A stretch of DNA of 64,000 bases from Gemmatimonadaceae bacterium (lineage in GTDB: Bacteria > Gemmatimonadota > Gemmatimonadetes > Gemmatimonadales > Gemmatimonadaceae). Under the pieces are notes generated by a model, which worked only from the letters and a program-made list of their open reading frames with translations, was not told the DNA's origin and ran no database searches. The stretch spans positions 6,435-70,434 of the forward strand of contig DATLBG010000129.1 in assembly GCA_035527035.1 (NCBI GenBank). Reading direction: 5' to 3'. Positions 4,944-26,984 of this stretch are shown here, piece by piece. How positions within the stretch are numbered: the stretch's first letter is position 1; each line of letters starts with the position of its first letter. The position numbers were made by a program, and so were the translations under genes.

Positions 4944-6259
4944 GCAGCGGTCCTCGTCTTCTGGGTTATCATCTCCGCGAAAGCCGAGTAGTTGGCCGTT
5001 GCGCTGTACTCCCGTTCCCACTTCGCCCTGCTTCCGGCGCGAAGCCGGTCCAATCGCGCCCGGTCGTCCAGCAGCGACCCGACGACCGCCGAGAACTCCA
5101 CCGGGTCAGGATTCGCTGTGAGCAGCACGCCGTTCTCCGGTCCAATTATCTCCGGGTTTCCTCCGACGGCAGTAGCGATGACGGGTATCCCGGCGCTAAT
5201 GGCCTCCATCACGGCCACCGGCGTTCCCTCGCTCGCGCTGGTGTTGACGAACACATCCACGGGCTGGGCGTGATAGTACGCGAACAACCCATCCCTTCCC
5301 GGATACGGCAGGAAGCGCCATCTGATGTTGGCAGGAAGAACTGCTCGAGCCAAATCCTCCAGCGGCTCTTTCGGCCCGTCACCGATATGGGTCCAGTCGA
5401 ACGTGACGTCTGCCCTCTCACGCCCCAACCGCTCGAGGCAGCGGATGAGCAAGTCGAGTCTCTTGACCGGCACGATGAACGAGCAGCTGACGACTCGGAA
5501 AACACCGTCGGATGACGGCACACTCTGGTGCGGAGCGGCGTCGACGCCAAGTAAGGAAACCTCGATCTTGTCGCGATACGCCGGATATCGGTGGACTACG
5601 TGGCGAGCTCCGGCGTGCGACGCGGAGAACATCCCCGAGATCTGGTCGAGCGCCCGATCGCGGAACGGGATGTAGGGGGGATCGTGCCGCCCCTCGTATA
5701 GATCCACTCCGTGAGCTCTCGTTATTACGGGGACGCCGGCCTTCAGCCGGTAAGACGAGAGACCCAGAGTCGTCGCGTCGAACCACCACGTGTAACACAG
5801 CCACCGGCCAAGCTGATCGGCGTGGTCCCGCGCGAAAGAGCGGATCCAACGCTCGGTTAGCCGCGCGTGCACGTTGTATCGCGCGGCTCTGGCCAGGGCC
5901 GCGGGGTGCCGGAAGAACATCTCACGATGCGCCACGATCTCGCGCCACAGGCGCAGGTCGAAAAGAGTCAACGGTGCCCATAACGCGCGACGGACGCGCG
6001 ACTGGACAAACCGCGAGTATCCGGTGTTGACCGCGATGCCGGGCGTGCGCACATCGTCGAGGTCGCCTTTCGCCAATTGCGGAATGAGGAATATCTTTCC
6101 GAAATAACGCGCGAGGACTTTCAGCTCCTGCTCGAGAAACGTCCTTTCGCCCGTCGCCGAGTACGGGTACGACCCGGTAAAGATCAAAAGCGTGTCCACA
6201 CGCTCGAGCGCCCCACCCGCCTGACGCGGGCGCTCAGTTCTGGTCGAGCGGACGATCAC
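4940..6259 (-). CDS. Glycosyltransferase family 4 (GT-B, GT1-type)
   Basis: C-terminal GT-B motif FVNTSASEGTPVAVMEAISAGIPVIATAVGGNPEII. The start is uncertain: 6259, or the GTG near 6199. Confidence 0.75.
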   Translation of the reverse strand: MIVRSTRTERPRQAGGALERVDTLLIFTGSYPYSATGERTFLEQELKVLARYFGKIFLIPQLAKGDLDDVRTPGIAVNTGYSRFVQSRVRRALWAPLTLFDLRLWREIVAHREMFFRHPAALARAARYNVHARLTERWIRSFARDHADQLGRWLCYTWWFDATTLGLSSYRLKAGVPVITRAHGVDLYEGRHDPPYIPFRDRALDQISGMFSASHAGARHVVHRYPAYRDKIEVSLLGVDAAPHQSVPSSDGVFRVVSCSFIVPVKRLDLLIRCLERLGRERADVTFDWTHIGDGPKEPLEDLARAVLPANIRWRFLPYPGRDGLFAYYHAQPVDVFVNTSASEGTPVAVMEAISAGIPVIATAVGGNPEIIGPENGVLLTANPDPVEFSAVVGSLLDDRARLDRLRAGSRAKWEREYSATANYSAFAEMITQKTRTAA

Positions 6260-8313: not shown

Positions 8314-10254
8314 ATGACACCTGCGCGTGCCGCAAGTATTCCATACCGACGTTTACACCTTCGGAATCGGCATCTCTTTGCCAGCGATCTCGTCAGTCTC
8401 GTTCTGGCTTCCCTGCTCGCATTCCTTGTCAGATTCGAACAGCTCCAATGGCTCTCGGCTAATAGCTGGCTGATAGCAGCGTACATCGGCATCGCCGTGC
8501 CGCTGCGCCTCGGACTGTTTCACGCGCTCGGCCTCTACAGGCGGCTTTGGCGCCATGCCAGCGTCGGGGAGCTACGCACGCTGGTGCTGGCCGGATTCGC
8601 CGGTGGCGTCATATGCGCGGTCGTCGGGATCTTCCTGCTTCCCTCGTTCGGCATCACCTCGAGCCGCGTCCCGATCTCCGTGGTTTTTATGGACGCCATG
8701 CTCGCCTGCGGCCTGGTCGCGCTGCCGCGGCTGCTCGCGCGCGCAGGCCGTTGGGGGCACCCGCAACGGCGGAGCGAGGACCACGCGAAGCGAACGCTGA
8801 TAGCGGGCGCAGGAACTTCCGGGAAGCAGGTCGCGAAAGAGCTGTGCAGAAACAGCCGCCTCGGCATGATGCCGGTCGGGTTCGTTGACGACGACCGGGC
8901 GAAGCATGGCCACATGCTGTACGATCTCCCCGTGCTGGGCTCGCTGGCCGACATAAGAAAGCTGGTCCCCATGCATGACATCGCCGAGATCGTCATCGCG
9001 ATGCCGTCGGCTTCAGGAACCGTCGTGCGCCAGGTGGTGCGAGCAGCGCTGGACACCGGGATTTCTACCCTGACCGTCCCAAGCCTGCCGGAGATCATCT
9101 CGCAAAAGGGTGGCGGTGCGTCCCTTCGCGAGGTGGAGATTCAGGACCTTCTGCGTCGTGAGCTGGTCGAGACGGACATGGCCTCGGTTGCCGCGCTGGC
9201 CACGGGCGAGACGGTGCTGATTACGGGCGCCGGCGGCTCGATCGGCAGCGAGCTCTGCCGCCAACTGGGAAGGCTGGCGCCCACCCGGCTCATCGTGCTC
9301 GGCCACGGCGAAAATTCCATCTTCGATGTGTACCACGAGCTCCGCGAAAGTTTCCCCCACGTGGAGATCGTTCCCGTCATCGCGGACGTCCGCGATCGCG
9401 ACCGGATGCTGAAGGTGCTCGCGCTGCACCGGCCTCACGCAGTCTTCCACGCCGCGGCCCATAAGCACGTCCCGCTCATGGAAGACAACGTGGTCGAAGC
9501 GGTCACCAACAACGTCACTGGAACGCGCAATACCGTAGACGCAGCGCTGGCAGCCGGTGTCTCCCGGTTCGTATTTATCTCCACGGACAAGGCCGTGCGG
9601 CCCACAAGCGTCATGGGCGCGTCCAAGCGTATTGCCGAGCAGATCGTCCAGCACGCGGCAACCAAGCACGATCAAAACTTCGTGTCAGTGCGGTTCGGCA
9701 ATGTGCTTGGAAGCCGTGGCAGCGTCGTGCCGAGCTTCATGCGCCAGATCCGCGCGGGCGGACCGGTGACGGTGACGCACCCCGAGATGCAGCGCTTCTT
9801 CATGACGATCCCGGAGGCCGTCCAGCTCGTCCTCCAGGCAGGAGCCCTCGGCCGCGGCGGCGAAGTGTTCGTGCTCGACATGGGCGAGCCAGTGAAAGTG
9901 GTCGATCTCGCCACGGACCTCATACGGCTGTCGGGCCTGGAGCCGGGACAGGATATCAAGATTCAGTTCACCGGAATTCGCCCCGGGGAGAAGCTGTACG
10001 AGGAGATGTTTTTCAGCGCGGAAAACGTGATTCCCACCGATCACCCGAAGGTGCTTCGAGCGCGCAACGGCCTGCTTGCCGAGGGCACCATGAGGAAAAT
10101 CGAGGCGCTCGCGAAGGGGGCGGTCGCTGGCAGGGAGGATGACGAGCTTCGGGCGCTGCTGCGTGAGCTGGTGCCGGATTTCCAACCGCACGATCCGCCG
10201 ACCCGACGCGACGCCGCGGCGACGGATCGGGAGTTTATCGCCTCGATCGCTTAG
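8314..10254 (+). CDS. Membrane-anchored polysaccharide biosynthesis protein CapD/WbpM/PglF family (nucleotide-sugar 4,6-dehydratase)
   Basis: N-terminal TM helices, then a first Rossmann segment LIAGAGTSGKQV and an SDR-extended domain VLITGAGGSIGSEL...STDKAV...ASKR. Confidence 0.85.
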   Translation: MTPARAASIPYRRLHLRNRHLFASDLVSLVLASLLAFLVRFEQLQWLSANSWLIAAYIGIAVPLRLGLFHALGLYRRLWRHASVGELRTLVLAGFAGGVICAVVGIFLLPSFGITSSRVPISVVFMDAMLACGLVALPRLLARAGRWGHPQRRSEDHAKRTLIAGAGTSGKQVAKELCRNSRLGMMPVGFVDDDRAKHGHMLYDLPVLGSLADIRKLVPMHDIAEIVIAMPSASGTVVRQVVRAALDTGISTLTVPSLPEIISQKGGGASLREVEIQDLLRRELVETDMASVAALATGETVLITGAGGSIGSELCRQLGRLAPTRLIVLGHGENSIFDVYHELRESFPHVEIVPVIADVRDRDRMLKVLALHRPHAVFHAAAHKHVPLMEDNVVEAVTNNVTGTRNTVDAALAAGVSRFVFISTDKAVRPTSVMGASKRIAEQIVQHAATKHDQNFVSVRFGNVLGSRGSVVPSFMRQIRAGGPVTVTHPEMQRFFMTIPEAVQLVLQAGALGRGGEVFVLDMGEPVKVVDLATDLIRLSGLEPGQDIKIQFTGIRPGEKLYEEMFFSAENVIPTDHPKVLRARNGLLAEGTMRKIEALAKGAVAGREDDELRALLRELVPDFQPHDPPTRRDAAATDREFIASIA

Positions 10255-13398: not shown

Positions 13399-15205
13399 GG
13401 TCGTACTCCAGTGTGAGTTCGATGTGATCCGGCCGCTGCGGGCCGTCCTTGGCGAGATCATACACCCACAGGGCGCCGGAGTCATCCATGCTCGCAAAAC
13501 CGTGGTCGCGGTAAACGGTTCGGGCCGGCTCGTTGCGCGGCGTGTGAATGAACTCGCCCATCAGGCGTCGGCCACCCGATCTTCGGGCCAGCCTCGCGGT
13601 CTCGTGCAGTAGCACTGACTCGGCACCGCGCCCGATCACCCGGCAGCTCAAAAGTAGCACGTCGAGGAGCCAATCGCCCGGGTTGGACGTCGGCACGGCG
13701 ATCGCTACGCCGACAAGTCCGGAGTCTCCGAACCGGTCGCTCACACGAATCCACAACCCAATGCCTCCCCGCGCAAGCAGTCCCTCGATTTCCGCTTGAC
13801 TGTACCTCCGAGTGGTTGTGTTGAATTGGTTCGTCTTTCCAATGAGTTGTGTAACCCGCGGAAGCGTATCGCCACCAATCGTCCCGATGCGCACCTTGAT
13901 CCCCAAGTCCCGAAGGAAGGCGTCGGATGACGGCAGCTCCTCCCTCAGGCGCTTTCGCTTCGTCTCATCGCGGTACATGCTCGCCCGCTTCTGGTCCTCG
14001 GGGGAGATCTGCAGGCTATCGAAGGCCTCCGAATTCTCAAGCGCTTCGATATAGGCCAGAGGATCCGCCGGCACGTCGATGACCAATGTTTCAGGAAGCT
14101 GGGTTCGGACCCACTCGCGCTCCACGGCGCTGTCGTCGAAGAAAGCGACCGCGTCAAGCCCGATTGACAAGTCGCGGGCGATGTTCCGAATCGAGGTCGC
14201 CTTGTCCCCCCAACCGATCTCGACCGCGGAAAATAGATCCGGCCGCAGGAGACAATCAGGATGCTCGGCCAGCGCGCGAATGGCGTCGTCACGATCGTTC
14301 TTGCTTGACACGGCAAGCAGGACGCCCCGATCCCGTAACCCTACGAGGTGCTGCTGAAACGAGCGAAAGATGGTTCCCGGATGATCGTGTCCCATCCTGA
14401 TACCACCGAAACCATCTTCGCCGAGTACGCCACCCCACAGAGTATTGTCGAGGTCCACGACGAGACATTTCCGCGCGGGCCGAAGGAGTGCAGCGATGTA
14501 GCGTGCCACGAGGGCCCCGATTCCTGCGAGCCCTTCGCTCCCGAATGGCAGCCGCGCCCGCAGCCACATGCGGCGATCCCTGATCCGGTCCGCGCCGCGT
14601 CGAGCCACGAACCCGGCAAAGTCCACGACATGGCAATCGGAAACTCCACGCACCGCGTAGGCCAGCTTCGCGTTGAGCTCCGCGACCGCGGACGCCTGCG
14701 ACGGATCGAGAACGGGCGCTGCCAGTCCGCCCGCCGAGCCGTCGATAACCGCGAAGTTCAAAATGAATATTGCGGCGCTGGTGCGGCTCCGTAGGCCTTC
14801 GACGAGCTCCCTTGCACGGACAGTCACCGCGTCAATCTCCGCAGCAACCTCCTCCTGCCTCAGCGCCGCAAACCGGTAACAGAGGGATTCGCTCAGGTCC
14901 TCCAGGAGCGCCGCAATAACGATGACCTCCGGCTGACCGGAAAAAAGCTCGCTACGCTCATTGAATGCCTGTAACTCAAGCTGGTTGAAGGGCGCGAATG
15001 CCGGTATTACCCGGAGGTCTCGGGCGGCGCCTTCCACGATGAGGTACGGTGCGAGCGGCGCAGCGGTGAAAGTGGAGAGCACCGCGACCCGTAAGACCTC
15101 GCTTGACGCGTCCGCGTCGGCCCCGAGCGTTCTGGCCAGCTCCAACACCGCGCCCACGTCGCCCCTCGCTGCTCGAGCCTTATCCCGCAGCGACCCGCTA
15201 GCCAT
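13388..15205 (-). CDS. FkbH-like HAD-superfamily IIIC protein with a C-terminal GNAT-like domain
   Basis: Central LVVDLDNTLWGGVLGEDG (HAD-IIIC/FkbH motif I), SSKN, and a C-terminal acyltransferase-like fold ...LLLSCRVIGRGAES. Immediately upstream of the ACP gene. Confidence 0.75.
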   Translation of the reverse strand: MASGSLRDKARAARGDVGAVLELARTLGADADASSEVLRVAVLSTFTAAPLAPYLIVEGAARDLRVIPAFAPFNQLELQAFNERSELFSGQPEVIVIAALLEDLSESLCYRFAALRQEEVAAEIDAVTVRARELVEGLRSRTSAAIFILNFAVIDGSAGGLAAPVLDPSQASAVAELNAKLAYAVRGVSDCHVVDFAGFVARRGADRIRDRRMWLRARLPFGSEGLAGIGALVARYIAALLRPARKCLVVDLDNTLWGGVLGEDGFGGIRMGHDHPGTIFRSFQQHLVGLRDRGVLLAVSSKNDRDDAIRALAEHPDCLLRPDLFSAVEIGWGDKATSIRNIARDLSIGLDAVAFFDDSAVEREWVRTQLPETLVIDVPADPLAYIEALENSEAFDSLQISPEDQKRASMYRDETKRKRLREELPSSDAFLRDLGIKVRIGTIGGDTLPRVTQLIGKTNQFNTTTRRYSQAEIEGLLARGGIGLWIRVSDRFGDSGLVGVAIAVPTSNPGDWLLDVLLLSCRVIGRGAESVLLHETARLARRSGGRRLMGEFIHTPRNEPARTVYRDHGFASMDDSGALWVYDLAKDGPQRPDHIELTLEYDPDD

Positions 15206-15803
15206 GTCTCGGCCTGGCCTTCATCTCACGCCACTCGTGAACCAGCAGCCCCCACCTATACCCGTCGACGTACGCGTCCCCGAGTCGCATAGCCTCGCGC
15301 AGCCGCCCTTCCAGAGTGAAACCGGTTTTTCGAAAGGTAAAGTTCATTCCCATGTTCTTCGCTGAGCTCCCCCCGGTGATGCGTCGCAACCCCAGCCGCT
15401 CAAAGGCGAACTCCGTGAGAAGCGCGATGGCCTCCTCGGACGCACCCGTCCCCCAGTAATCCTTCTCTCCGATCAGCAGGCCGAACTCGGCTGAACCGTT
15501 GTAGCGATGGATATCGTACAGCGTACAAGTTCCGATGGACTCGCCGGCAGCGCGGGGGACTATCGCCCACATGTATTTCTCCACGGGGCCCTCGAACGAT
15601 TCCACGAACGCCGTGACTGTGTCCCGCGACTGCGGCTGATATCGGGGACGGTCGAGGAAGCGAACGATCTCGGGGTCGCACAGCCAGGAGATGTAGCGGT
15701 CGTTGATCATCGCCTTGTCAAACGGGACAAGCGACAGAGTGGGGCCGTCTAGCCGCTCGCGATTGTTGTCAGTGCTTGACATGCTATAGGATAAAGACTT
15801 CAC
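15198..15803 (-). CDS. GNAT-family N-acyltransferase (RimJ/RimL-like)
   Basis: FGLLIGEKDYWGTGASEEAIALLTEFAFERLGLRRI...N, GNAT motif A. 8-nt overlap with the FkbH-like gene. The start is the GTG at 15803 or the ATG at 15782. Confidence 0.75.
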   Translation of the reverse strand: MKSLSYSMSSTDNNRERLDGPTLSLVPFDKAMINDRYISWLCDPEIVRFLDRPRYQPQSRDTVTAFVESFEGPVEKYMWAIVPRAAGESIGTCTLYDIHRYNGSAEFGLLIGEKDYWGTGASEEAIALLTEFAFERLGLRRITGGSSAKNMGMNFTFRKTGFTLEGRLREAMRLGDAYVDGYRWGLLVHEWREMKARPRHG

Positions 15804-17990: not shown

Positions 17991-18713
17991 TCACCCTGGA
18001 AGCACCTGTCGCGCCAGCAGGTAGATCGCGCATCCGGAGAAAAACGCCACGGGCAGCTTCCACCCCGGCTTCGCCTGAAATTCCGGGACGAGGTTCGATG
18101 CCCCTACGTACAGCGTCACGCCGCCGGCGAGCGCAAGGCCATGTCTCGCGAGCGGAGCGATCAGCCCCGTGAACAGAACGCCGAGCACGGTAGCCGCGGC
18201 AAGCAGCACGGCGGCGGTGACGGCGCGCCTGCGGCCGGCGCCCGCGGCCAGGAACAGGCTCGAGATCGCTACTCCCTCGGGAATCTTGTGCAGGAGTATC
18301 GCGAAGAAGACGAGGATTCCGAGCGTGCTGCTGACCGCGAAGCCGCTCGCGATCGCGACGCCGTCGATGAAGGTGTGCAGTAGCAATCCGGCGAGCGCTG
18401 ACCACCCGACGGCGGCGGTCACCGCGTGCTTTTCTTCGCCGAAATGGAAGTGGGGCGCCAGCGTGTGCTGGGTGAGATGCACCAGTAAATAGCCCACCAG
18501 CACCATTAGCGCGGCGCGCGAGCCGCCTTCCTCGATGGCGTGAGGGATGAGGTCAAGCAGACCGACCGAGACCATGAAGCCCGCGGAAAATGCGAGCAGG
18601 GCGTCGAGCCCGCTCTCGCTCCACCGGGTTCGCGCGGTGACTGCGGCGGCGCCTATGATGTTGGCGGCGCCGGCGAGCACAGCGTAGCCTAGCGCTACGA
18701 GATCTATGTTCAC
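17991..18713 (-). CDS. ZIP-family divalent metal transporter (ZupT/GufA-like)
   Basis: Multi-TM protein with HKIPEGVAI and HxxxDG motifs. Start moved to the GTG at 18713 (VNIDLVALGY...). The long ORF extension to 19004 overlaps the next gene. Confidence 0.75.
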   Translation of the reverse strand: MNIDLVALGYAVLAGAANIIGAAAVTARTRWSESGLDALLAFSAGFMVSVGLLDLIPHAIEEGGSRAALMVLVGYLLVHLTQHTLAPHFHFGEEKHAVTAAVGWSALAGLLLHTFIDGVAIASGFAVSSTLGILVFFAILLHKIPEGVAISSLFLAAGAGRRRAVTAAVLLAAATVLGVLFTGLIAPLARHGLALAGGVTLYVGASNLVPEFQAKPGWKLPVAFFSGCAIYLLARQVLPG

Positions 18714-18727
18714 GCCGGGAGAACTAC

Positions 18728-18755
18728 TAACAGCCAATAGCCAATAGCCAATAGC
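18728..18755 (+). repeat. Tandem heptamer repeat TAACAGC (CAATAGC)x3
   Basis: Read directly. A low-GC island between the stop of the 175-aa ORF (18763) and the ZIP start (18713). Confidence 0.85.
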
Positions 18756-19438: not shown

Positions 19439-20770
19439 TCAGGCGTCGGGCCTGGTCGGGGATCCGTTTTTTGCCAGCGATAGCAGGCGATCCGGCGTAT
19501 TCAGAGACGGATCGCGCACAACAGCTTCCAGCAGGGCGTGCAGCGCCTTGCCCAGCGCCGGCCCGGCAATGCCCAGCTTCTGCAGGTCGGTGCCGTCCAC
19601 CGCCAGGTCGCCGAGCTCTACCGGATCGCGATACGCTATCCGCAGCGCCCGGCGATGGAGCGAGGCGATCTTTGCGGCCGCGGGAGCGGGCAGCCCCGCT
19701 TCTCGCTCCGCCCACCAGATCGCGTCCGCCAGCCGCACCACCGAGGCAAAACGCGTGCGACCGGCGACGGACACCCAGCGGCGGATGTCGGCATCGGCGG
19801 CGCCGGCGGGTGACTCGAGCGAGGTGCGCATAACGGGCTCGAGCCTGGCGAGCGCCTCGATCAGCGAGCTGATCCACCCTCCGGCCGCATTCGAGAAGCG
19901 AAGCGACTTCATCACATTCGCCGCGCGGCCCGCGGGCACGGCCGACAGCAGCGCGGCGATCCGCAGCAAGCGCCGCTGCGGGCGGGTGGCGAGGATGGGA
20001 CGCCGCAGGTGATCGATCGCGCGCAGCTGCAGATCGGTGACGCCCGATAGATCCGGAATGAGAGTCCCGAACGCTCCGCCGTCGCGCCAGCGCGCGAATG
20101 CTCCGCTCGGACAGGGGACCTGATCCATCGTCTTTTCCATCTCCTGCCTCACGCGCTCCGGCGACAGCCGTGACATGTGCGGCGCGCTCTCGACGATGGC
20201 GGCCCACGTCCGCGGTTCTATCTCGAACCCGTACCGGGCCGCGAAGCGAATAGCCCGCAGCGCGCGGAGGCGGTCTTCGCGCATCCGGTCGCCCGGATCT
20301 CCAACCGCCCGCACGACGCGCGCGCGCAGGTCCCGCTCTCCGCGAAACGGATCGTGCAGCACGGCGCGAGTCGGCGAGTACGCGATCGCGTTGATGGTGA
20401 AATCCCGGCGCGCCAGATCCTCGTCGAACGAGGCGCCGAACTCGACGACCGCGTGCCGGCCGTCCGTCTGCACGTCGCGCCGGAACGTGGTCACCTCGTG
20501 CATCACGTTCGCCTCGTCGAGCACGCCGATGGTCCCGAACTCGATTCCCACCGGCACCGTTCGCCGGAAAATCTTGCGGACCTGCTCGGGGCGGGCGGCC
20601 GTCGCGAAATCCCAGTCGAGATGCTGCTTGCCGAGCAGAGCATCCCGCACCGCGCCGCCCACGCACCACGTTTCGAAGCCGGCGTCCTCCAGCTTTCGCG
20701 CGATTCCGACCACGGCCGCAGGTGGATCGATGGACGCGCGCTTCGACTCGGGTGCGTCGTGTCGAGTCAA
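19439..20770 (-). CDS. cca: CCA-adding tRNA nucleotidyltransferase / poly(A) polymerase family protein
   Basis: GFETWCVGGAVRDALLG...DWDFAT...RRDFTINA, the class II nucleotidyltransferase head-domain motifs. Confidence 0.8.
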   Translation of the reverse strand: MTRHDAPESKRASIDPPAAVVGIARKLEDAGFETWCVGGAVRDALLGKQHLDWDFATAARPEQVRKIFRRTVPVGIEFGTIGVLDEANVMHEVTTFRRDVQTDGRHAVVEFGASFDEDLARRDFTINAIAYSPTRAVLHDPFRGERDLRARVVRAVGDPGDRMREDRLRALRAIRFAARYGFEIEPRTWAAIVESAPHMSRLSPERVRQEMEKTMDQVPCPSGAFARWRDGGAFGTLIPDLSGVTDLQLRAIDHLRRPILATRPQRRLLRIAALLSAVPAGRAANVMKSLRFSNAAGGWISSLIEALARLEPVMRTSLESPAGAADADIRRWVSVAGRTRFASVVRLADAIWWAEREAGLPAPAAAKIASLHRRALRIAYRDPVELGDLAVDGTDLQKLGIAGPALGKALHALLEAVVRDPSLNTPDRLLSLAKNGSPTRPDA

Positions 20771-21081
20771 CGTGCCGAAAGCCCGCCCAGGCGCGCCAGG
20801 GCGTCGCGCGCAAACTGGTCCGCGCCGCCCGCGGACTCGGCGACCGCCTCGAAAGCGTAGGTCACGAGCGCGTCGGCAAGCAGCAGGTCGGGAGCGATCG
20901 CCGGAGTCTGCGGCTCGGCCCGCAGCACGCGGCCGAGCACTCTCTCGCCGGCGCGGAGCAGCACCCCGGGCGCTTCCGTGAAACTGGCGCCCAGCTCGGC
21001 CTCGAGCTCGGTGCGAAGCGCCTGGGCCAGGCCGTCAGGCGGCTGAGGATCGCGCGCGTCGAGCCATTCGCCGACGGTCAC
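20767..21081 (-). CDS. Hypothetical small protein (104 aa), translationally coupled between alaS and cca
   Basis: GTGA overlap with the alaS stop and ATGA overlap with the cca start. No recognisable motif. Confidence 0.45.
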   Translation of the reverse strand: MTVGEWLDARDPQPPDGLAQALRTELEAELGASFTEAPGVLLRAGERVLGRVLRAEPQTPAIAPDLLLADALVTYAFEAVAESAGGADQFARDALARLGGLSAR

Positions 21082-23921
21082 TTCGCCGCGGCCAGGTGGC
21101 GGCGGATTACGTCGGGCACGGTGGCCAGCAGCGCCGCGATGTCGGCCGAGTCCGGCAGCCCGGCTTGCGCCATGTGCGGCTTTCCCCCGCCGCGGCCGCC
21201 GGCAGCCGCCGCAATTTCCTTGAGCACATTGTCGGCACGGACTCCTCTGCCGCGCAGGTCGTCGCTCACAACGGTGAGAAGCGTGCGCTTGCCGTCGTCG
21301 AGCGTGGCCACCAGAACGGCCGCTCCCGTTCCCATGCTCTCCCGCAGCGAGTCGCCCATCGCCTGCAGAGTCTTTAGATCGGAGGCCTCCACTGAGGACG
21401 CGATGACACGCACGCCTTCGACCTGCTGCGACTGCTCGACCAGCGCGCTCATGCCATTCGCCGCCGGGCCCGCGCCCACCGCTCCTGAGCGTCGCGCTTC
21501 AGCGAGCAGTCGCTCCGACTCTTTCGATTTGTCGAGCAGAGCCTGCACGCGCTTCGCCGCCGCTCCCGGCTGCGCCTTCACCAGCCGCTCGACCTCCGCC
21601 AGCTCCCGCTCTTTATCCAGCATCACTTCGAGCGCGCGCGGTCCCGTCACGGCCTCGATCCGCCTGACGCCGGCCGCTACGCCCGTCTCGCTGACGATGC
21701 GGAATAGCCCGATCTCCGACGTGTTCCGCACGTGCGTGCCGCCGCAGAGCTCGGTCGACACGCCCGGCACTTTCACGACGCGCACGACGTCGCCGTATTT
21801 CTCGCCGAACAGCGCCATTGCACCGTCGGCAATTGCGTCGGCGTACCGCTTCTCTTCGAACGAGAGCGCGATCGCGGAGAAAATCGCGGCGTTGACGTGC
21901 TGCTCCACCGCGACTGTCTGCTCCGGAGTCAACGGGCCGTTGTTGGTGAAATCGAATCGCAGCCGGTCCGGCGCGACGAGCGATCCCGCCTGGTGCACGT
22001 GCTCGCCGAGCACATCCCGCAGCGCCGCGTGCAGCAGGTGCGTGGCCGTGTGATTTCGCTCGGTATCCAGCCGGCTCCCGCGCGGTACCCGGGCCTTCAC
22101 CGTTCCGAACTGAAACTCGCCCTCGATCCGGCCGGCCGCGGCGATCCGGCCTTCCACGCGACGGACCTCGTCCACGTCGAGCCGCCATCCCTCGCCGATG
22201 ATCTCACCGGCGTCGGAGATCTGCCCTCCGGATTCCGCGTAGAACGGCGTCTCGCGCAACACGACCGCGACTCTGCCATCCGCCAGCGCCTTTCGCGCCA
22301 CGACCTCGGTCTCGGTTTCGATGCTGTCGTAGCCGACGAACGCCGCGCCCTGAACCGAAGACAGGCTGCTGTTGGCTATTGGCTGTTGCCTATTGGCTTG
22401 AAGCCCACCGCCTGAACGACCAGGAACCGCTTCATACTCGGCGGTGCGCGCGCCGAAGCTGACGTCTGAGGCGCCGACGACCTCCCAGCCGTCAGCGAGA
22501 TCGTCGCTCGCGGAGACCCCGAGCTTTTTGGATTTGCGCTCCTGCTGCGACTGCGTGCGCTGCGCCGCGAGCGCTCGCTCGAATCCGGGAATGTCCACGG
22601 AATAGCCCCGCTCGGCGGCCATCAGCTGCGTGAGGTCGATCGGAAAGCCGAACGTGTCGTACAGCTTGAATGCATCGTCGCCGGGAATCGTTCCCTTGAG
22701 ATCGACCGAGCCGCCAGTCGTGGACAACGGCGCGAGCTCCTCGAAGCGGCGCATCCCGCCCTCGATCGTCGCGAGAAAGCGCTCTTCCTCGGCGCGCGTG
22801 GTGTCCACGAGATACTTCCGCCGCTGGCGAAGATCCGGGTACGCGTCACCCATGGTCTTGACGACTGCCTCTACGGCCGCGTGCAGGACCGGGCGCTTCA
22901 CGCCGAGGAGCCAGGCGTTGCGGACCGCGCGGCGGAGGATGCGGCGCAGCACATAGCCACGCCCTTCGTTGGACGGAAACACGCCGTCGGCCAGCAGGAA
23001 CGCGACGGAGCGCGCGTGGTCGGCGATGACGCGGTGCGCCGCGTGCGCCGGCTCCGCGCGCGAGTAGCGCACACCAGTCGCGTCGGAGACCGCGTCGATG
23101 ATGGCGGTGAAGACGTCGGAATGAAAGCTGTTGGATTTTCCCTGCGCGATCATCGAGATGCGCTCGAGCCCCATCCCGGTGTCCACCGATGGCTTGGGCA
23201 GCGGCACCAGGGTGCCGTCTTCCTGCCTGTCGAACTGCATGAACACCAGGTTCCAAACCTCGATGAAGCGGTCGGCCTCGGTCCCCTGCACGAACGCCTC
23301 GAGCGAGAATTCCTCGCGGTCGAGCTCCGTCCACTCGCCGGCCGCCCCTTCCGGAAACACCCAGTCTTCCGCGACGTGCGCCTGATCGATGAATATCTCC
23401 GAGCAGGGACCGCACGGGCCTGTGTCGGCCATCTGCCAAAAGTTGTCCTTGTCGCCCAGCGCGTAGACGCGGGACGGATCGAGTCCTGATATTTCGAGCC
23501 ACAGCGCGCGCGCCTCGTCGTCGGTGTGGTGCACCGACACGCGGATGTATTTGGGATCCAGGCGGAGGTGGACGGTGAGGAACTCCCAGGCGAAGCGAAT
23601 CGCGTCGCGCTTGAAGTAATCCCCGAAGGAGAAGTTGCCGAGCATCTCGAAGAAGGTCTGATGCCGCGCGGTGTGGCCGACCTGCTCCAGGTCGTTGTGC
23701 TTGCCGCCCGCACGCACGCACTTCTGCGAGGACGCGGCGCGGCGGCTGCCGCCCGGCGGCTCGGCCGCACCCAGAAACACCTTCTTGAACGGCACCATGC
23801 CCGCATTCGTGAACAGCAGCGTCGGATCGTCCACCGGCACCAGCGACGCGCTCGGCACCACGGCGTGCCCGTTGGCCCGGAAGTATTCGAGGAACGCGCT
23901 GCGAATGTCCGCCGATTTCAT
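21078..23921 (-). CDS. alaS: Alanine--tRNA ligase, with an extended linker containing a heptamer-repeat-encoded insert
   Basis: MKSADIRSAFLEYFRANGHAVVPSASLVP..DPTLLFTNAGM..FK, an editing domain with HTATHLLH and CGGTHV, and a C-terminal DHHA1-like region. The 947-aa length exceeds the usual size. Confidence 0.95.
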   Translation of the reverse strand: MKSADIRSAFLEYFRANGHAVVPSASLVPVDDPTLLFTNAGMVPFKKVFLGAAEPPGGSRRAASSQKCVRAGGKHNDLEQVGHTARHQTFFEMLGNFSFGDYFKRDAIRFAWEFLTVHLRLDPKYIRVSVHHTDDEARALWLEISGLDPSRVYALGDKDNFWQMADTGPCGPCSEIFIDQAHVAEDWVFPEGAAGEWTELDREEFSLEAFVQGTEADRFIEVWNLVFMQFDRQEDGTLVPLPKPSVDTGMGLERISMIAQGKSNSFHSDVFTAIIDAVSDATGVRYSRAEPAHAAHRVIADHARSVAFLLADGVFPSNEGRGYVLRRILRRAVRNAWLLGVKRPVLHAAVEAVVKTMGDAYPDLRQRRKYLVDTTRAEEERFLATIEGGMRRFEELAPLSTTGGSVDLKGTIPGDDAFKLYDTFGFPIDLTQLMAAERGYSVDIPGFERALAAQRTQSQQERKSKKLGVSASDDLADGWEVVGASDVSFGARTAEYEAVPGRSGGGLQANRQQPIANSSLSSVQGAAFVGYDSIETETEVVARKALADGRVAVVLRETPFYAESGGQISDAGEIIGEGWRLDVDEVRRVEGRIAAAGRIEGEFQFGTVKARVPRGSRLDTERNHTATHLLHAALRDVLGEHVHQAGSLVAPDRLRFDFTNNGPLTPEQTVAVEQHVNAAIFSAIALSFEEKRYADAIADGAMALFGEKYGDVVRVVKVPGVSTELCGGTHVRNTSEIGLFRIVSETGVAAGVRRIEAVTGPRALEVMLDKERELAEVERLVKAQPGAAAKRVQALLDKSKESERLLAEARRSGAVGAGPAANGMSALVEQSQQVEGVRVIASSVEASDLKTLQAMGDSLRESMGTGAAVLVATLDDGKRTLLTVVSDDLRGRGVRADNVLKEIAAAAGGRGGGKPHMAQAGLPDSADIAALLATVPDVIRRHLAAAK
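22368..22402 (-). repeat. Tandem heptamers (CAATAGG CAACAGC CAATAGC CAACAGC on the coding strand) inside alaS
   Basis: The plus strand reads GCTGTTG GCTATTG GCTGTTG CCTATTG GCTTGAA. It encodes LQANRQQPIANSS in the AlaS linker. The unit is the same as at 18728-18755. Confidence 0.8.
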
Positions 23922-23978
23922 TCGCCAAATGTAAGTCGGTTCTGGGTTGCAGGTCGTGCGGATGATGCATCATCGTGG

Positions 23979-24070
23979 GGGCACGCGAGGCATAGGCTCC
24001 CGTCGCGTGCTACGCGAGCAAACTGCGCTCGCTAGGACGCACGCTGTGGGAGTCTATGCCTCGCATGCCC
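23979..24070 (+). repeat. Nested-hairpin repeat, copy B (TAGGAC variant)
   Basis: gggcacgcgaggcataggctcccgtcgcgtg-CTAC-GCGAGC-aaactgc-GCTCGC-TAGGAC-gcacgctgtgggagtctatgcctcgcatgccc. The arms are complementary with a few mismatches. Confidence 0.8.
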
Positions 24071-24161
24071 TCCGGCACATTTGGCAACCGCCCGGCCGGC
24101 AACCCAAATCAGCAGGCTTTCCCGGGCGCAACCCCGCGGGCTCGGGTTACCGCATAGAGCG

Positions 24162-24686
24162 CTAGCATTTCGACCCGCCCGGCATCGGACAGTCCACAGG
24201 GTCGAAGCGCCGGCTCGCCTGATCCCATCTTCGACAAGACCATGGCTGATCCCCGGTGAGGAACCTCACACCGGAATAAGTGGGGAGATCGCGCAGGGAG
24301 AATATGAGGAAGAAGTAACGGTGGTCCCGCTCGAGCACGAAAGTGTACGGGCGACCTTCCCCATCACAGTAAACCTCCCTGATTGCGAAGGTGCCCGTCC
24401 CGGTGGACGGCACGGTCAGGTACTGGAAGTATCCGCGCGTACGGCGGGACGTCGTGGCAAGAAGAAACTCGGCAGGCCTGCCGGAAATCCGCATGCTGTC
24501 AGCGCGCTGCACTCCGGGGCCGCATTCGATCCGGCGGGTGGGGAGCATTCGCGGCGTCTGTGGCCCGAGCGAATCGGCCTCAGCTACGAGTCGCGCCCAG
24601 GGATCGTCCTGAGCCCCCGCCGCTAGCGGAAACGCGGCGATGAGCGACAAAAGAACGGTGCACCAGCGTATCGAAGTCGTCTGCAT
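24162..24686 (-). CDS. Hypothetical secreted Cys-containing protein
   Basis: Start set to MQTTSIRWCTVLLSLIAAFPLAAGAQD (signal-peptide-like). No known motif. Confidence 0.5.
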   Translation of the reverse strand: MQTTSIRWCTVLLSLIAAFPLAAGAQDDPWARLVAEADSLGPQTPRMLPTRRIECGPGVQRADSMRISGRPAEFLLATTSRRTRGYFQYLTVPSTGTGTFAIREVYCDGEGRPYTFVLERDHRYFFLIFSLRDLPTYSGVRFLTGDQPWSCRRWDQASRRFDPVDCPMPGGSKC

Positions 24687-24757
24687 GAATGCCCTCCAAC
24701 CACTCATGCCGGCGGTAACGGGAAATGTCACACGACACACGCCGTCCGCGGGATCTT

Positions 24758-25321
24758 TCAGACCAGCAGCGAAACAGTCCGCTTGATCTCGTCGACGTCG
24801 TACCCGCGGCGGGCCAGAAATGCGAAGAGGCGCTGGCGCGCGACGCGAGGGTCGAGGCCGGCGAGAGTCTGCAGTTTCTTGCGCGCGACTTTCTCGACAG
24901 CCGCGGCTGCGTCGACTTCTTCGGTCTCCACGACACGCTGCATGGCAGCAGTCACGGTATCGCTCGCGATACCCTTTCGCACCAGGAGCTGAGCCACGCG
25001 CCGTTGTGACGCGCTCTCGTTCACCAGCTTTCCGCGGGCGAACCGCTCGGCATACGACGCATCATCCAGCAGTCCTGAGCGCTCGAGCCGTTCGACGGTC
25101 GCAGTGACTTCCTCCGGCGGATACTCGCGCTGCACGAGCTTCCGTCTGAGGTCGCGCACGGTGTAGCTCCGCGCGGTCAGCAGCCGCAGCGCGTACTCGT
25201 GCGGCGAGCTGTGCGGCCGCGCGGGGGTGTCGGCGTCCGCGGAGGGGCGGCCGTAACGGCTTGGGCGGGTCACAGCGGAAGGCTGAAGGAGTCCGTTTTC
25301 GGCATCGCCCGCCACGCACAC
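24758..25321 (-). CDS. recX: Recombination regulator RecX
   Basis: YALRLLTARSYTVRDLRRKLVQREYPPEEVTATVERLERSGLLDDASYAERF, the three-repeat RecX pattern, immediately downstream of recA. Confidence 0.85.
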   Translation of the reverse strand: MCVAGDAENGLLQPSAVTRPSRYGRPSADADTPARPHSSPHEYALRLLTARSYTVRDLRRKLVQREYPPEEVTATVERLERSGLLDDASYAERFARGKLVNESASQRRVAQLLVRKGIASDTVTAAMQRVVETEEVDAAAAVEKVARKKLQTLAGLDPRVARQRLFAFLARRGYDVDEIKRTVSLLV

Positions 25322-25352: not shown

Positions 25353-26405
25353 CTACTCCTCGACGGCCTCGACCGACTCGACGACCTCGACTTCGCCCGG
25401 CGGCCGGATGCCGAGCACGACCTTCACCTTCTCTTCCACCTCGGCGAGCATCGGCGGGTTGTCCTTCAGGAACATCTTCGCGTTCTCGCGGCCCTGGCCG
25501 ATCCGCTGTCCGTTGTAGCTGTACCAGGCCCCCGACTTGTCGATGATCCCCGACTCCGACGCGATGTCGAGCACCAGCGACGCATGGCTGATACCCTCGG
25601 CGTACATGATGTCGAACTCCGCCTGCTTGAACGGCGGGGCTACCTTGTTCTTCACGACCTTAACGCGGCAGTGCGAGCCCGTGACCTCCTCTTTCTCCTT
25701 CACCGCCGCGATGCGCCGGATGTCCAACCGCACCGATGCGTAGAACTTGAGCGCCTTGCCGCCGGTGGTCGTCTCGGGGTTGCCGAACATGACGCCGATC
25801 TTCTCTCGCAGCTGATTGATGAAGATCACGGAAGTCCGCGACCGGGCGATCGCACCCGTAAGCTTGCGCAGCGCCTGACTCATGAGCCGCGCCTGGAGGC
25901 CGACGTGCGAGTCGCCCATGTCGCCCTCGATCTCGGCTTTTGGCACGAGCGCGGCCACGGAGTCGATGACTACAACGTCCACCGCACCGGACCGCACCAG
26001 GATCTCGCAGATCTCGAGAGCCTGCTCGCCCGTGTCCGGCTGCGACACCAGCATGTTCTCGACGTCCACTCCCAGCTTGGCGGCGTAGTCGGTATCCAGC
26101 GCGTGCTCGGCATCGATGTAAGCCGCCACGCCGCCAGCCTTCTGCGCGTTGGCCACCACATGCAGGCAGAGCGTGGTTTTGCCGCTGGACTCGGGTCCGT
26201 ATATCTCGGTGATCCGCCCCCGGGGAATCCCGCCGACACCGATCGCGGCGTCGAGATTGATCGCGCCGGTTGGAATCGCGTCCACCCGGACCCGCGAATC
26301 CGAGCCCATCTTCATGATGGAGCCCTTACCGTGGGCTTTCTCGATCTGGGCGATGGCGAGGCCGAGGGCCTTTTTCTTCTCTTCCTGCATTGCGGGCGAA
26401 GGCAT
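25353..26405 (-). CDS. recA: Recombinase RecA
   Basis: [27 protein letters not shown] and [22 protein letters not shown], canonical RecA. Confidence 0.98.
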
Positions 26406-26425
26406 AGGGGGAGTCCTCTAACAGG

Positions 26426-26453
26426 TGACTAGTGACTGGTGACTAATGACTAG
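26426..26453 (+). repeat. Tandem heptamer repeat GTGACTA GTGACTG GTGACTA ATGACTA in the recA leader
   Basis: Read directly. It lies 21-48 nt upstream of the recA ATG (26405), between an AT-rich putative promoter region and the GAGGA Shine-Dalgarno. Confidence 0.85.
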
Positions 26454-26887: not shown

Positions 26888-26984
26888 GCCGCGGATTCTG
26901 CGGCATGCCGGCGCTTAGTGCGTCATCAAATCGTTGAGGGGATTACCGATCGCTTCGGGCTAATGGCTTCGGCCGATAGAGGCG

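Follow-up and report, generated by a model that had tools for sequence, protein, structure and literature searches.

The alanine–tRNA ligase gene (alaS) of a Gemmatimonadaceae bacterium harbors, in frame and in the middle of its coding sequence, four tandem copies of a heptanucleotide unit, CCAAYAG on the coding strand and CTRTTGG on the other. The gene lies in a stretch of 64,000 nucleotides, hereafter the window (assembly GCA_035527035.1, contig DATLBG010000129.1, positions 6,435 to 70,434 of the forward strand). The array is of a known bacterial kind, the heptanucleotide simple sequence repeats (SSRs), and is unusual in being in frame in an essential synthetase and in persisting across species. 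Comparison of orthologous genes shows it to have occupied this site already in the common ancestor of a clade that spans about 18% AlaS divergence. We consider it probable that the segment is an array akin to the short tandemly repeated repetitive (STRR) sequences of cyanobacteria, carried as an old neutral passenger in a dispensable, disordered linker.

A heptanucleotide array within the alaS coding sequence

The host gene is readily identified. Its product is 100% identical to a database protein (P0001, 'alanine--tRNA ligase [Gemmatimonadaceae bacterium]') from a metagenome-assembled genome, which carries the domains PF01411, PF07973, and PF02272 (tRNA-synt_2c, tRNA_SAD, and DHHA1), and it resembles alanyl-tRNA synthetases (AlaRS) over its full length, with matches to AlaRS structures in the PDB down to E = 3e-140. 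The gene lies downstream of recA (25353..26405) and recX (24758..25321) in a window of 65.8% GC.

On the plus strand, positions 22368-22396 read GCTGTTGGCTATTGGCTGTTGCCTATTGG, or by units CTGTTGG CTATTGG CTGTTGC CTATTGG; on the coding strand, from 22395 to 22368, the units are CAATAGG CAACAGC CAATAGC CAACAGC. Four heptamers can be read directly, head to tail, where at least three define a tandem array, and they encode residues A509-S518 within ...GGGLQANRQQPIANSSLSS..., in keeping with the original prediction, made from the letters of the window, of an in-frame heptamer array in the AlaS linker. Tandem Repeats Finder reports a period of 7 (4.4 copies, 79% match) and, more cleanly, a period of 14 (2.2 copies, 94% match), because units with T and units with C alternate. 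The lag-7 autocorrelation at the array, 0.71, is the highest in the gene (mean 0.28, standard deviation 0.09).

The unit recurs elsewhere in the window well above chance. With at most one mismatch, CAAYAGSCAAYAGS is matched six times, three times at 18728-18755 and three times at 22368-22395, as opposed to a shuffle expectation of 0.11, and none of 100 shuffles reaches six. The 14-mer CAGCCAATAGCCAA is common to the alaS array and to an intergenic array at 18727-18754, which bears out the earlier claim of a shared unit with 14 identical nucleotides; the two arrays run in opposite directions, whether judged by the chromosome or by local transcription. Two further claims held. The segment is richer in AT than its surroundings (51.7% GC vs. 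67.1% for the gene), although the AT-richest spot of alaS is 23107-23140 (near 23110) and not the array, and AlaS is unusually long in its linker, by about 48 residues over Gemmatimonadaceae AlaS proteins of 897-902 residues.

Age and decay of the array among orthologs

The orthologs considered here are AlaS homologues of 78-83% identity whose DNA was retrieved, and the clade comparison comprises 10 alaS genes. The locus L081, about 18% diverged from the window in AlaS, has four CCAAYAG units in matching position and frame, GCC AAC AGC CAA CAG CCA ATA GCC AAT AGC, which encode ANSQQPIANS. Both lineages that keep the array have four units, and in both the unit whose YAG falls in frame reads CAA CAG; a T there would create a stop codon. 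GC-enriched versions of the array are found in L082 (GAC AGC CGC CAG CCA GCA GCC GGC) and L207 (CAG CCT GCG GCG CGC AGC), while other heptamer-like units stand at the homologous codons of L083 and L204-L208, such as GCTGGCA GCGAACT GCTGGCA GCTCGCA in L206 and GCGGATA GCGAATC GCGGGCA GCGCGCA in L208. A homologous linker segment with residual 7-nt periodicity is present in 10 of 10 clade members, and the linker is the gene-wide lag-7 maximum in six of these genes and ranks second in two more. These comparisons show an array that is nearly intact in the window and L081 and that has elsewhere drifted to GC-richer heptamers with its 7-nt periodicity kept. Among 35 more distant Gemmatimonadota alaS genes, the linker is the lag-7 maximum in only one, so that AlaS linker expansions across the phylum cannot in general be attributed to heptamer arrays.

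In a distance tree of AlaS, the window forms the basal branch of the clade, 14.6-19.9% from the other members. Since L081 has its array at the same site as this basal lineage, the array dates at least to the common ancestor of the clade; the linker extension of about 48 residues is specific to the clade and missing from the shorter AlaS proteins. Whether relatives write the same linker peptide in different codons, a check proposed at the outset, receives a divided answer: L081 keeps the peptide with the same rare codons, as the repeat interpretation would have it, whereas L082 and L207 have a similar peptide (QPAA.S.L.SVE) in GC-enriched codons, which speaks against it.

A permissive linker

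AlaRS catalytic fragments in the PDB align to about residue 458-460 and the editing-domain match begins at about 549; solved structures leave AlaS residues 460-548 uncovered. AlphaFold gives residues 484-531 a predicted local distance difference test score (pLDDT) of about 25 and no secondary structure. Within the family, AlaS ranges from 896 to 994 residues in length, with indels at the linker spot. In L209 (1903-4710; P0008), the array-bearing segment is lost through a clean in-frame deletion of 99 nt (33 codons) between two GGT codons; AlaS of L209 is 5.5% diverged from that of L205, and the boundaries of the deletion differ from those of the segment bracketed by the direct repeat discussed below. 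A linker-peptide search for length variants, such as extra QQPIANS units, returned only five unrelated fragments, a consensus scan found no antisense promoter near the array, and Rfam at gathering thresholds yielded no match in the whole window.

The array would owe its persistence to a linker in which nearly any sequence is tolerated, the visible coding constraints perhaps being only a total length that keeps the frame and, in every third unit, where YAG falls in frame, the need for CAG. It would add about 10 residues (ANRQQPIANS) of flexible spacer to AlaRS.

The flanking direct repeat and the possibility of recent insertion

The array had been proposed to be a recent, discrete insertion bracketed by a target-site duplication. 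The direct repeat does exist, as CCTGAACCGA on the left and CCTGAACGA on the right, but a flank repeat of the same strength is found at 13.6% of random window positions (p about 0.14). The starts of the two copies are 62 nt apart and their ends 61 nt apart; neither distance is a multiple of 3, so that simple insertion or excision would frameshift an essential gene. The downstream copy falls in the codons S-V-Q, which are conserved as amino acids among relatives, and the CCTGAAC bracket was not found around the matching array in L081 alaS. The flank-repeat statistic, the frame arithmetic, and the comparison with L081 lead us to reject a target-site duplication in alaS, and the orthologs, all 10 with a homologous linker segment and one with the array at the same site, largely refute the mobile-insertion reading.

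Such an insertion would have delivered a small mobile element bearing the heptamers into the frame of alaS. Besides the repeat itself, it draws on a junction upstream of a ZIP-family transporter gene, described in the next section, where an array shows presence/absence polymorphism with a flanking duplication and where CCTGAAC also stands at the unoccupied site of L082 and L083; between the alaS and ZIP elements, the resemblance goes no further than a loose leader, CCTGA..CGA..CAG. Among CTRTTGG arrays, the search for terminal inverted repeats or a conserved non-repeat core was negative, and no leader or trailer is shared by the flanks of more than 100 of them. We regard recent insertion of this kind as very improbable. 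Miniature inverted-repeat transposable elements and repetitive extragenic palindromic (REP)-like insertions with target-site duplications offer a parallel to the occupied and empty sites of the ZIP junction, where about 10 nt of target are repeated at the far end; unlike these elements, the arrays have neither terminal inverted repeats nor a common non-repeat core, and the alaS copy has no credible duplication.

Arrays and genes in the vicinity

Table 1. Coordinates, in the window, of the features discussed
Feature	Positions	Strand	Remarks
alaS (alanine--tRNA ligase), host gene	21078..23921	-	947 aa
Four-unit heptanucleotide array, CCAAYAG family, in frame in alaS	22368..22396	-	encodes A509-S518 (ANRQQPIANS)
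Left copy of direct repeat, CCTGAACCGA	22349..22358	+	judged a chance match, not a target-site duplication
Right copy of direct repeat, CCTGAACGA	22411..22419	+	without counterpart in L081
Variable AlaS linker segment, G490-Y531	22329..22454	-	clade-specific extension holding the array; between catalytic/tRNA-recognition part and editing domain
Intergenic array, CTATTGG x3 then CTGTTAG	18727..18754	-	same family as the alaS array
53-nt array-holding segment	18710..18762	-	occupied/empty among relatives
Second heptamer array family, recA leader	26418..26452	-	TAGTCAT TAGTCAC CAGTCAC TAGTCAC CTGTTAG

The intergenic array that shares the alaS unit begins 8 nt past the stop of an upstream 175-aa gene and stops 13 nt short of the ZIP-family transporter gene, whose GTG start is at 18713 (Table 1). 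It is read in the sense of this downstream gene, whereas the alaS copy is opposite relative to transcription. The junction is occupied in the window, L204 (15435-15545), L205 (about 15480-15535), and L206 (about 15102-15205; 47 nt, 6 nt shorter), and empty in L082 (about 10159), L083 (about 14829), and L208 (about 15451), where the stop of the 175-aa gene overlaps the ZIP start, a CTG (GCCTGAAC). The extra segment opens with an 8-nt leader, continues with four heptamers and a 7-nt trailer, and closes with a duplicate of the 10 nt that precede it. This duplicate, CCCGGCGTGA, agrees at 8 of 10 positions with the original, ACCGGCCTGA, in which the upstream stop codon lies. The duplication keeps a fixed register in both the window and L205, and through its changed base the right-hand copy gives the ZIP gene its GTG or TTG start. 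At this locus, and here only, the segment looks like a duplication-associated insertion.

Either one ancient event followed by three precise deletions or recurrent insertion could account for the junction; the near-equal insert size argues for homology of the segments. Independent insertions had been considered on account of one co-varying position of the 10-mer (G/G in the window, A/A in L205), a single site too weak to carry the proposal. Two schemes linking the junction to alaS were set aside. In the first, template switching at CCTGAAC would have copied the alaS array into the ZIP element; the two align loosely, but L204 and L205 have the junction element with no CCAAYAG array in alaS. Long-range pairing of the alaS array with the ZIP-leader array on a possible common transcript would employ a 14-nt perfect complement in the window, which is not conserved because L204 and L205 have no alaS partner.

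The second family of arrays resides in the recA leader, ending 12 nt upstream of the recA ATG (26405) and in the sense of recA. It recurs at the orthologous site in L082 (2670-2703), L204 (6812-6845), L205 (7361-7400), L206, and L207 (3808-3841), with five TAGTCAC units in L205 and four elsewhere. On one side the array is flanked by a conserved promoter-like stretch (TTGCTA-N17-TATTTT) plus a small hairpin, on the other by the ribosome-binding site. Its first bases in most relatives are GGTGAC and can pair with each of the GTCACC units that follow, so that alternative hairpins are possible. The recA leader of L208 (7964-8026) holds GCGCAGY-type units, then CTGATAG x3, CTGATAA, and CTGATTC, the CTGATAG and CTGATAA units being TAACTGA in another register. 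That of L083 (6107-6252) has inverted arrays, (GTGACTA)5 and (TCACTAR)4, about 70 nt apart, in place of the hairpin region.

A further intergenic site, between the PPC-domain and UPF0102 genes, begins at a TAG stop, and its units (CTGTTGG, CTCTTGG/CTGCTAG, and CTGATNG then CCAATAG), orientations, and lengths differ per relative (L082 2121-2175; L083 5566-5620; L204 and L205 6819-6868), only a degenerate remnant being left in the window (about 26888-26984). The alaS stop is overlapped by 4 nt by an open reading frame (ORF) for 104 aa (20767-21081, minus strand), which recurs in the same place, with 104 residues each, in all fetched relatives and has no Pfam hit on record. Gene content between recX and alaS is variable (window 23922-24757; L083 8096-9179; L204 8684-9776; L209; L210): several relatives have an HTH_3 and Fic gene pair there, the window has a different ORF of 192 residues (24162-24740) with a signal-peptide-like start, and toxin-antitoxin genes (PemK, PIN, HicB) are scattered downstream in relatives. 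Farther away, at 8457-8477, a two-copy repeat of period 11 with CTRATAG motifs, GGCTAATAGCT GGCTGATAGC, lies in the 5′ part of ORF 8314-10254, which corresponds to the polysaccharide-biosynthesis gene (CoA_binding_3/Polysacc_synt_2) of relatives.

Heptamer arrays across Gemmatimonadota

A census of 1.37 Mb of Gemmatimonadota loci, which counted arrays of at least three units with at most two mismatches and took its expectation from Markov-shuffled sequence, found 54 period-7 arrays where 15.8 were expected (3.4-fold). Periods 5 and 8 were at expectation, and periods 6 and 9 were raised, as expected for coding DNA. Only 4 of the 54 period-7 arrays were flagged as coding, compared to 54% of random positions, by a rough classifier based on GC content at third codon positions, whose sensitivity of about 60% makes these coding counts lower bounds; among the coding arrays, the two that are AT-rich lie in alaS, one in the window and one in L081. 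Beyond these loci, CTRTTGG x3 occurs in over 120 metagenome contigs, whose GC content ranges over 26-70%, and of the 33 such arrays in contigs of at least 60% GC, one, a dubious case, was flagged as coding. The heptamer family is real and predominantly non-coding, and the alaS copy is the exception. The original prediction was thus right to liken the segment to STRR sequences and to call an in-frame copy in a synthetase unusual.

The arrays often stand just upstream of start codons and turn over at orthologous intergenic sites in the window and its relatives. Unit families across Gemmatimonadota genomes include CTRTTGG, TAGTCAC, GTAGACG, GGGAATC, GCGAATA, CTCCTRT, CTGATAG, and others, with CTRTTGG-type arrays also in L081, L082 (2121-2156), and the ZIP junctions of L204 and L205. 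Inverted pairs of arrays occur in L057 (1002-1125), L013 (19969-20018), L016 (11417-11482), L044 (915-975), and L083. L013 has GGGAATC-type units at 5556-5590, as in Xanthomonas repeats. An array of 16 units in L051 (16299-16409), (CTCCTAT)8 then (CTCCTGT)8, runs into Ns at a scaffold gap, which suggests that such arrays break assemblies. Full-text literature searches that paired heptamer or heptanucleotide repeats with either Gemmatimonadetes or bacterial genomes brought up no description of such arrays in the phylum.

Competing explanations

The alaS array would have arisen by the same process as the intergenic arrays, namely slippage of the polymerase or expansion of the 7-nt unit, for which a small insertion with an associated duplication, such as that at the ZIP junction, may have been the seed. 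Since no promoter-like site or RNA family was found at the array and most relatives have let it decay, a neutral passenger is kept as the most likely explanation. Several observations weigh against it. When the window is compared with L081, 27 of 30 nt (90%) of the array core are identical, in contrast to 17 of 42 nt (about 40%) in the adjoining linker codons (Fisher p = 2e-5), the two genes being 78.7% identical overall and 58.8% at third positions, and both keep the rare codons CAA, CCA, and ATA, each 7-9% of its amino acid's usage. Under GC pressure, decay would be expected of a neutral passenger and is what other lineages show; such conservation could be explained by selection at the nucleotide level or by homogenization towards the family unit. 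Furthermore, the intact or similar (type-A) linker is patchy on the tree (window, L081, L082, and L207), a pattern that calls for more than one independent decay, for poor resolution of the tree, or for re-homogenization or recombination. The AlphaFold model is modest (mean pLDDT 62, from a shallow alignment of 30 sequences) and only weakly predicts a disordered linker, and no alaS allele devoid of just the array was found among relatives to give direct evidence on its origin.

It is in principle conceivable, if unlikely, that the array is kept for a function at the nucleic-acid level, as a platform for single-strand-binding proteins, a rare-codon pause between AlaRS domains, or an antisense element. 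The conserved core and rare codons would fit such a role, as would the recurrence of the unit family in relatives and across metagenomes of widely differing GC and the conservation of the recA-leader array across the clade; binding of regulators (S1, Csp, CsrA) has been proposed for analogous arrays (MacGregor 2015, PMC4679880). However, the AT-rich units are lost at this site in most clade members and the whole segment is deleted in one, the rare-codon cluster is missing in 8 of 10 relatives, the alaS copy is opposite in orientation to the leader arrays, and neither a promoter-like site nearby nor an Rfam match was found. Concerted evolution strikes us as rather less credible. It would renew the alaS array through gene conversion, with other CCAAYAG arrays of the genome as donors, or through rounds of slippage and re-expansion, and the likeness between lineages would then come from homogenization towards the family unit and not from selected inheritance. 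Of the four differences that separate the units of the window from those of L081, three are exchanges of C and T at the variable Y position, same-unit arrays stand elsewhere in these genomes (18727-18754 in the window, 2121-2156 in L082, and the ZIP junctions of L204 and L205), and renewal would suit the patchy intact state, but the conversion tracts would be only about 28 nt, both lineages have four units, and no donor-recipient pair with identical unit order was found. On present data, concerted evolution and selection cannot be told apart.

A bolder proposal, slightly more doubtful still, holds that an active, stereotyped process makes and maintains the arrays: a cassette of about 43 nt (short leader, four units, and trailer) would be laid down with a target duplication of about 10 nt, its units would be held against GC pressure and placed in mRNA leaders as a binding or standby platform, and the alaS copy would be selected for its nucleotides rather than its peptide. 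Several lineages have cassettes of nearly one size (53 nt; 47 nt in L206) at the ZIP junction. There is, by comparison, scarcely any room for a periodicity that is a by-product of selection for a QQPIANS-like peptide, or for a low-complexity stretch due to chance. A peptide of this kind, (Q)QP(I/A)A.S.L.SV(E/Q), is indeed found in the window, L081, L082, and L207; yet a 7-nt period is not a multiple of 3, the same unit also forms non-coding arrays nearby, its six matches in the window far exceed the shuffle expectation of 0.11, and the peptide is not conserved in six other clade members and deleted in one, within a hypervariable linker.

Relation to known repeats and significance

Cyanobacteria have been known for decades to carry heptanucleotide tandem arrays, and Xanthomonas, Beggiatoaceae, and Bacteroidetes were later added to the list. 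The cyanobacterial STRR unit is a heptanucleotide such as CAACAGT, from which the CAACAGC/CAATAGC unit of the window is one base off. Like the STRR sequences, the arrays described here have a 7-nt period, few units, several unit families per genome, and a mostly non-coding distribution; unlike them, they reside in Gemmatimonadota, in a genome of 66% GC, with one copy in frame in an essential gene and persistent across species-level divergence. Three tandem heptanucleotides are on record in Calothrix PCC 7601 (Rehm 2015, PMC4692102), and heptameric SSRs are over-represented in many bacteria, mostly in intergenic DNA, with slippage linked to the polymerase footprint proposed as their origin (PMC4692102). 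The GGGAATC arrays of Xanthomonas and GGGGAYT arrays of Nostoc are intergenic, favor about four units, and vary between relatives (PMC4692102). These G-quadruplex SSRs resemble the present arrays in being intergenic and under-represented in coding DNA, in having about four units and occasional inverted pairs (here in L083, L057, L013, and L016), and in varying in length and sequence at orthologous sites, and GGGAATC-type units are themselves present in L013. The alaS copy differs in being coding and, since its unit has no G-tracts, is not expected to form a G-quadruplex.

Arrays of TAACTGA, found in marine Beggiatoaceae, some Cyanobacteria, and Bacteroidetes, stand just upstream of start codons, where a site for a post-transcriptional regulator has been proposed (PMC4679880), and have rare reverse-orientation copies inside ORFs (MacGregor 2015, PMC4679880). 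They share with the present arrays two to six units, a mostly intergenic location towards a nearby start (the recA and ZIP arrays of the window end 12-13 nt before theirs), rare reversed copies in ORFs, apparent 7-nt-step indels between relatives, and even the unit itself, in another register, in the recA leader of L208. The units here are mainly CTRTTGG and TAGTCAC, with many families coexisting, and the in-ORF copy lies in a housekeeping synthetase rather than in small hypothetical ORFs. The phase-variable coding SSRs of pathogens offer a final parallel, in that a unit that is not a multiple of 3 lies in an ORF, where gain or loss of one unit shifts the frame. The alaS array does not behave as a contingency locus: its four units are imperfect (effectively two 14-mers), mid-gene, and equal in number in the window and L081, and on/off switching of an essential housekeeping gene would be lethal.

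On the practical side, heptamer arrays can mislead gene callers, break assemblies (L051), and mimic insertions. For the biology of the phylum, the locus extends heptanucleotide tandem arrays to Gemmatimonadota and provides comparative handles, namely an in-frame array old enough for an intact copy to be set against decayed ones, an array segment that is present or absent with a target duplication at one junction, and a conserved array in the recA leader. These handles allow one to ask whether such arrays evolve neutrally, are homogenized, or are selected. As for the synthetase itself, the finding mainly shows how tolerant the AlaRS linker is ahead of the editing domain.

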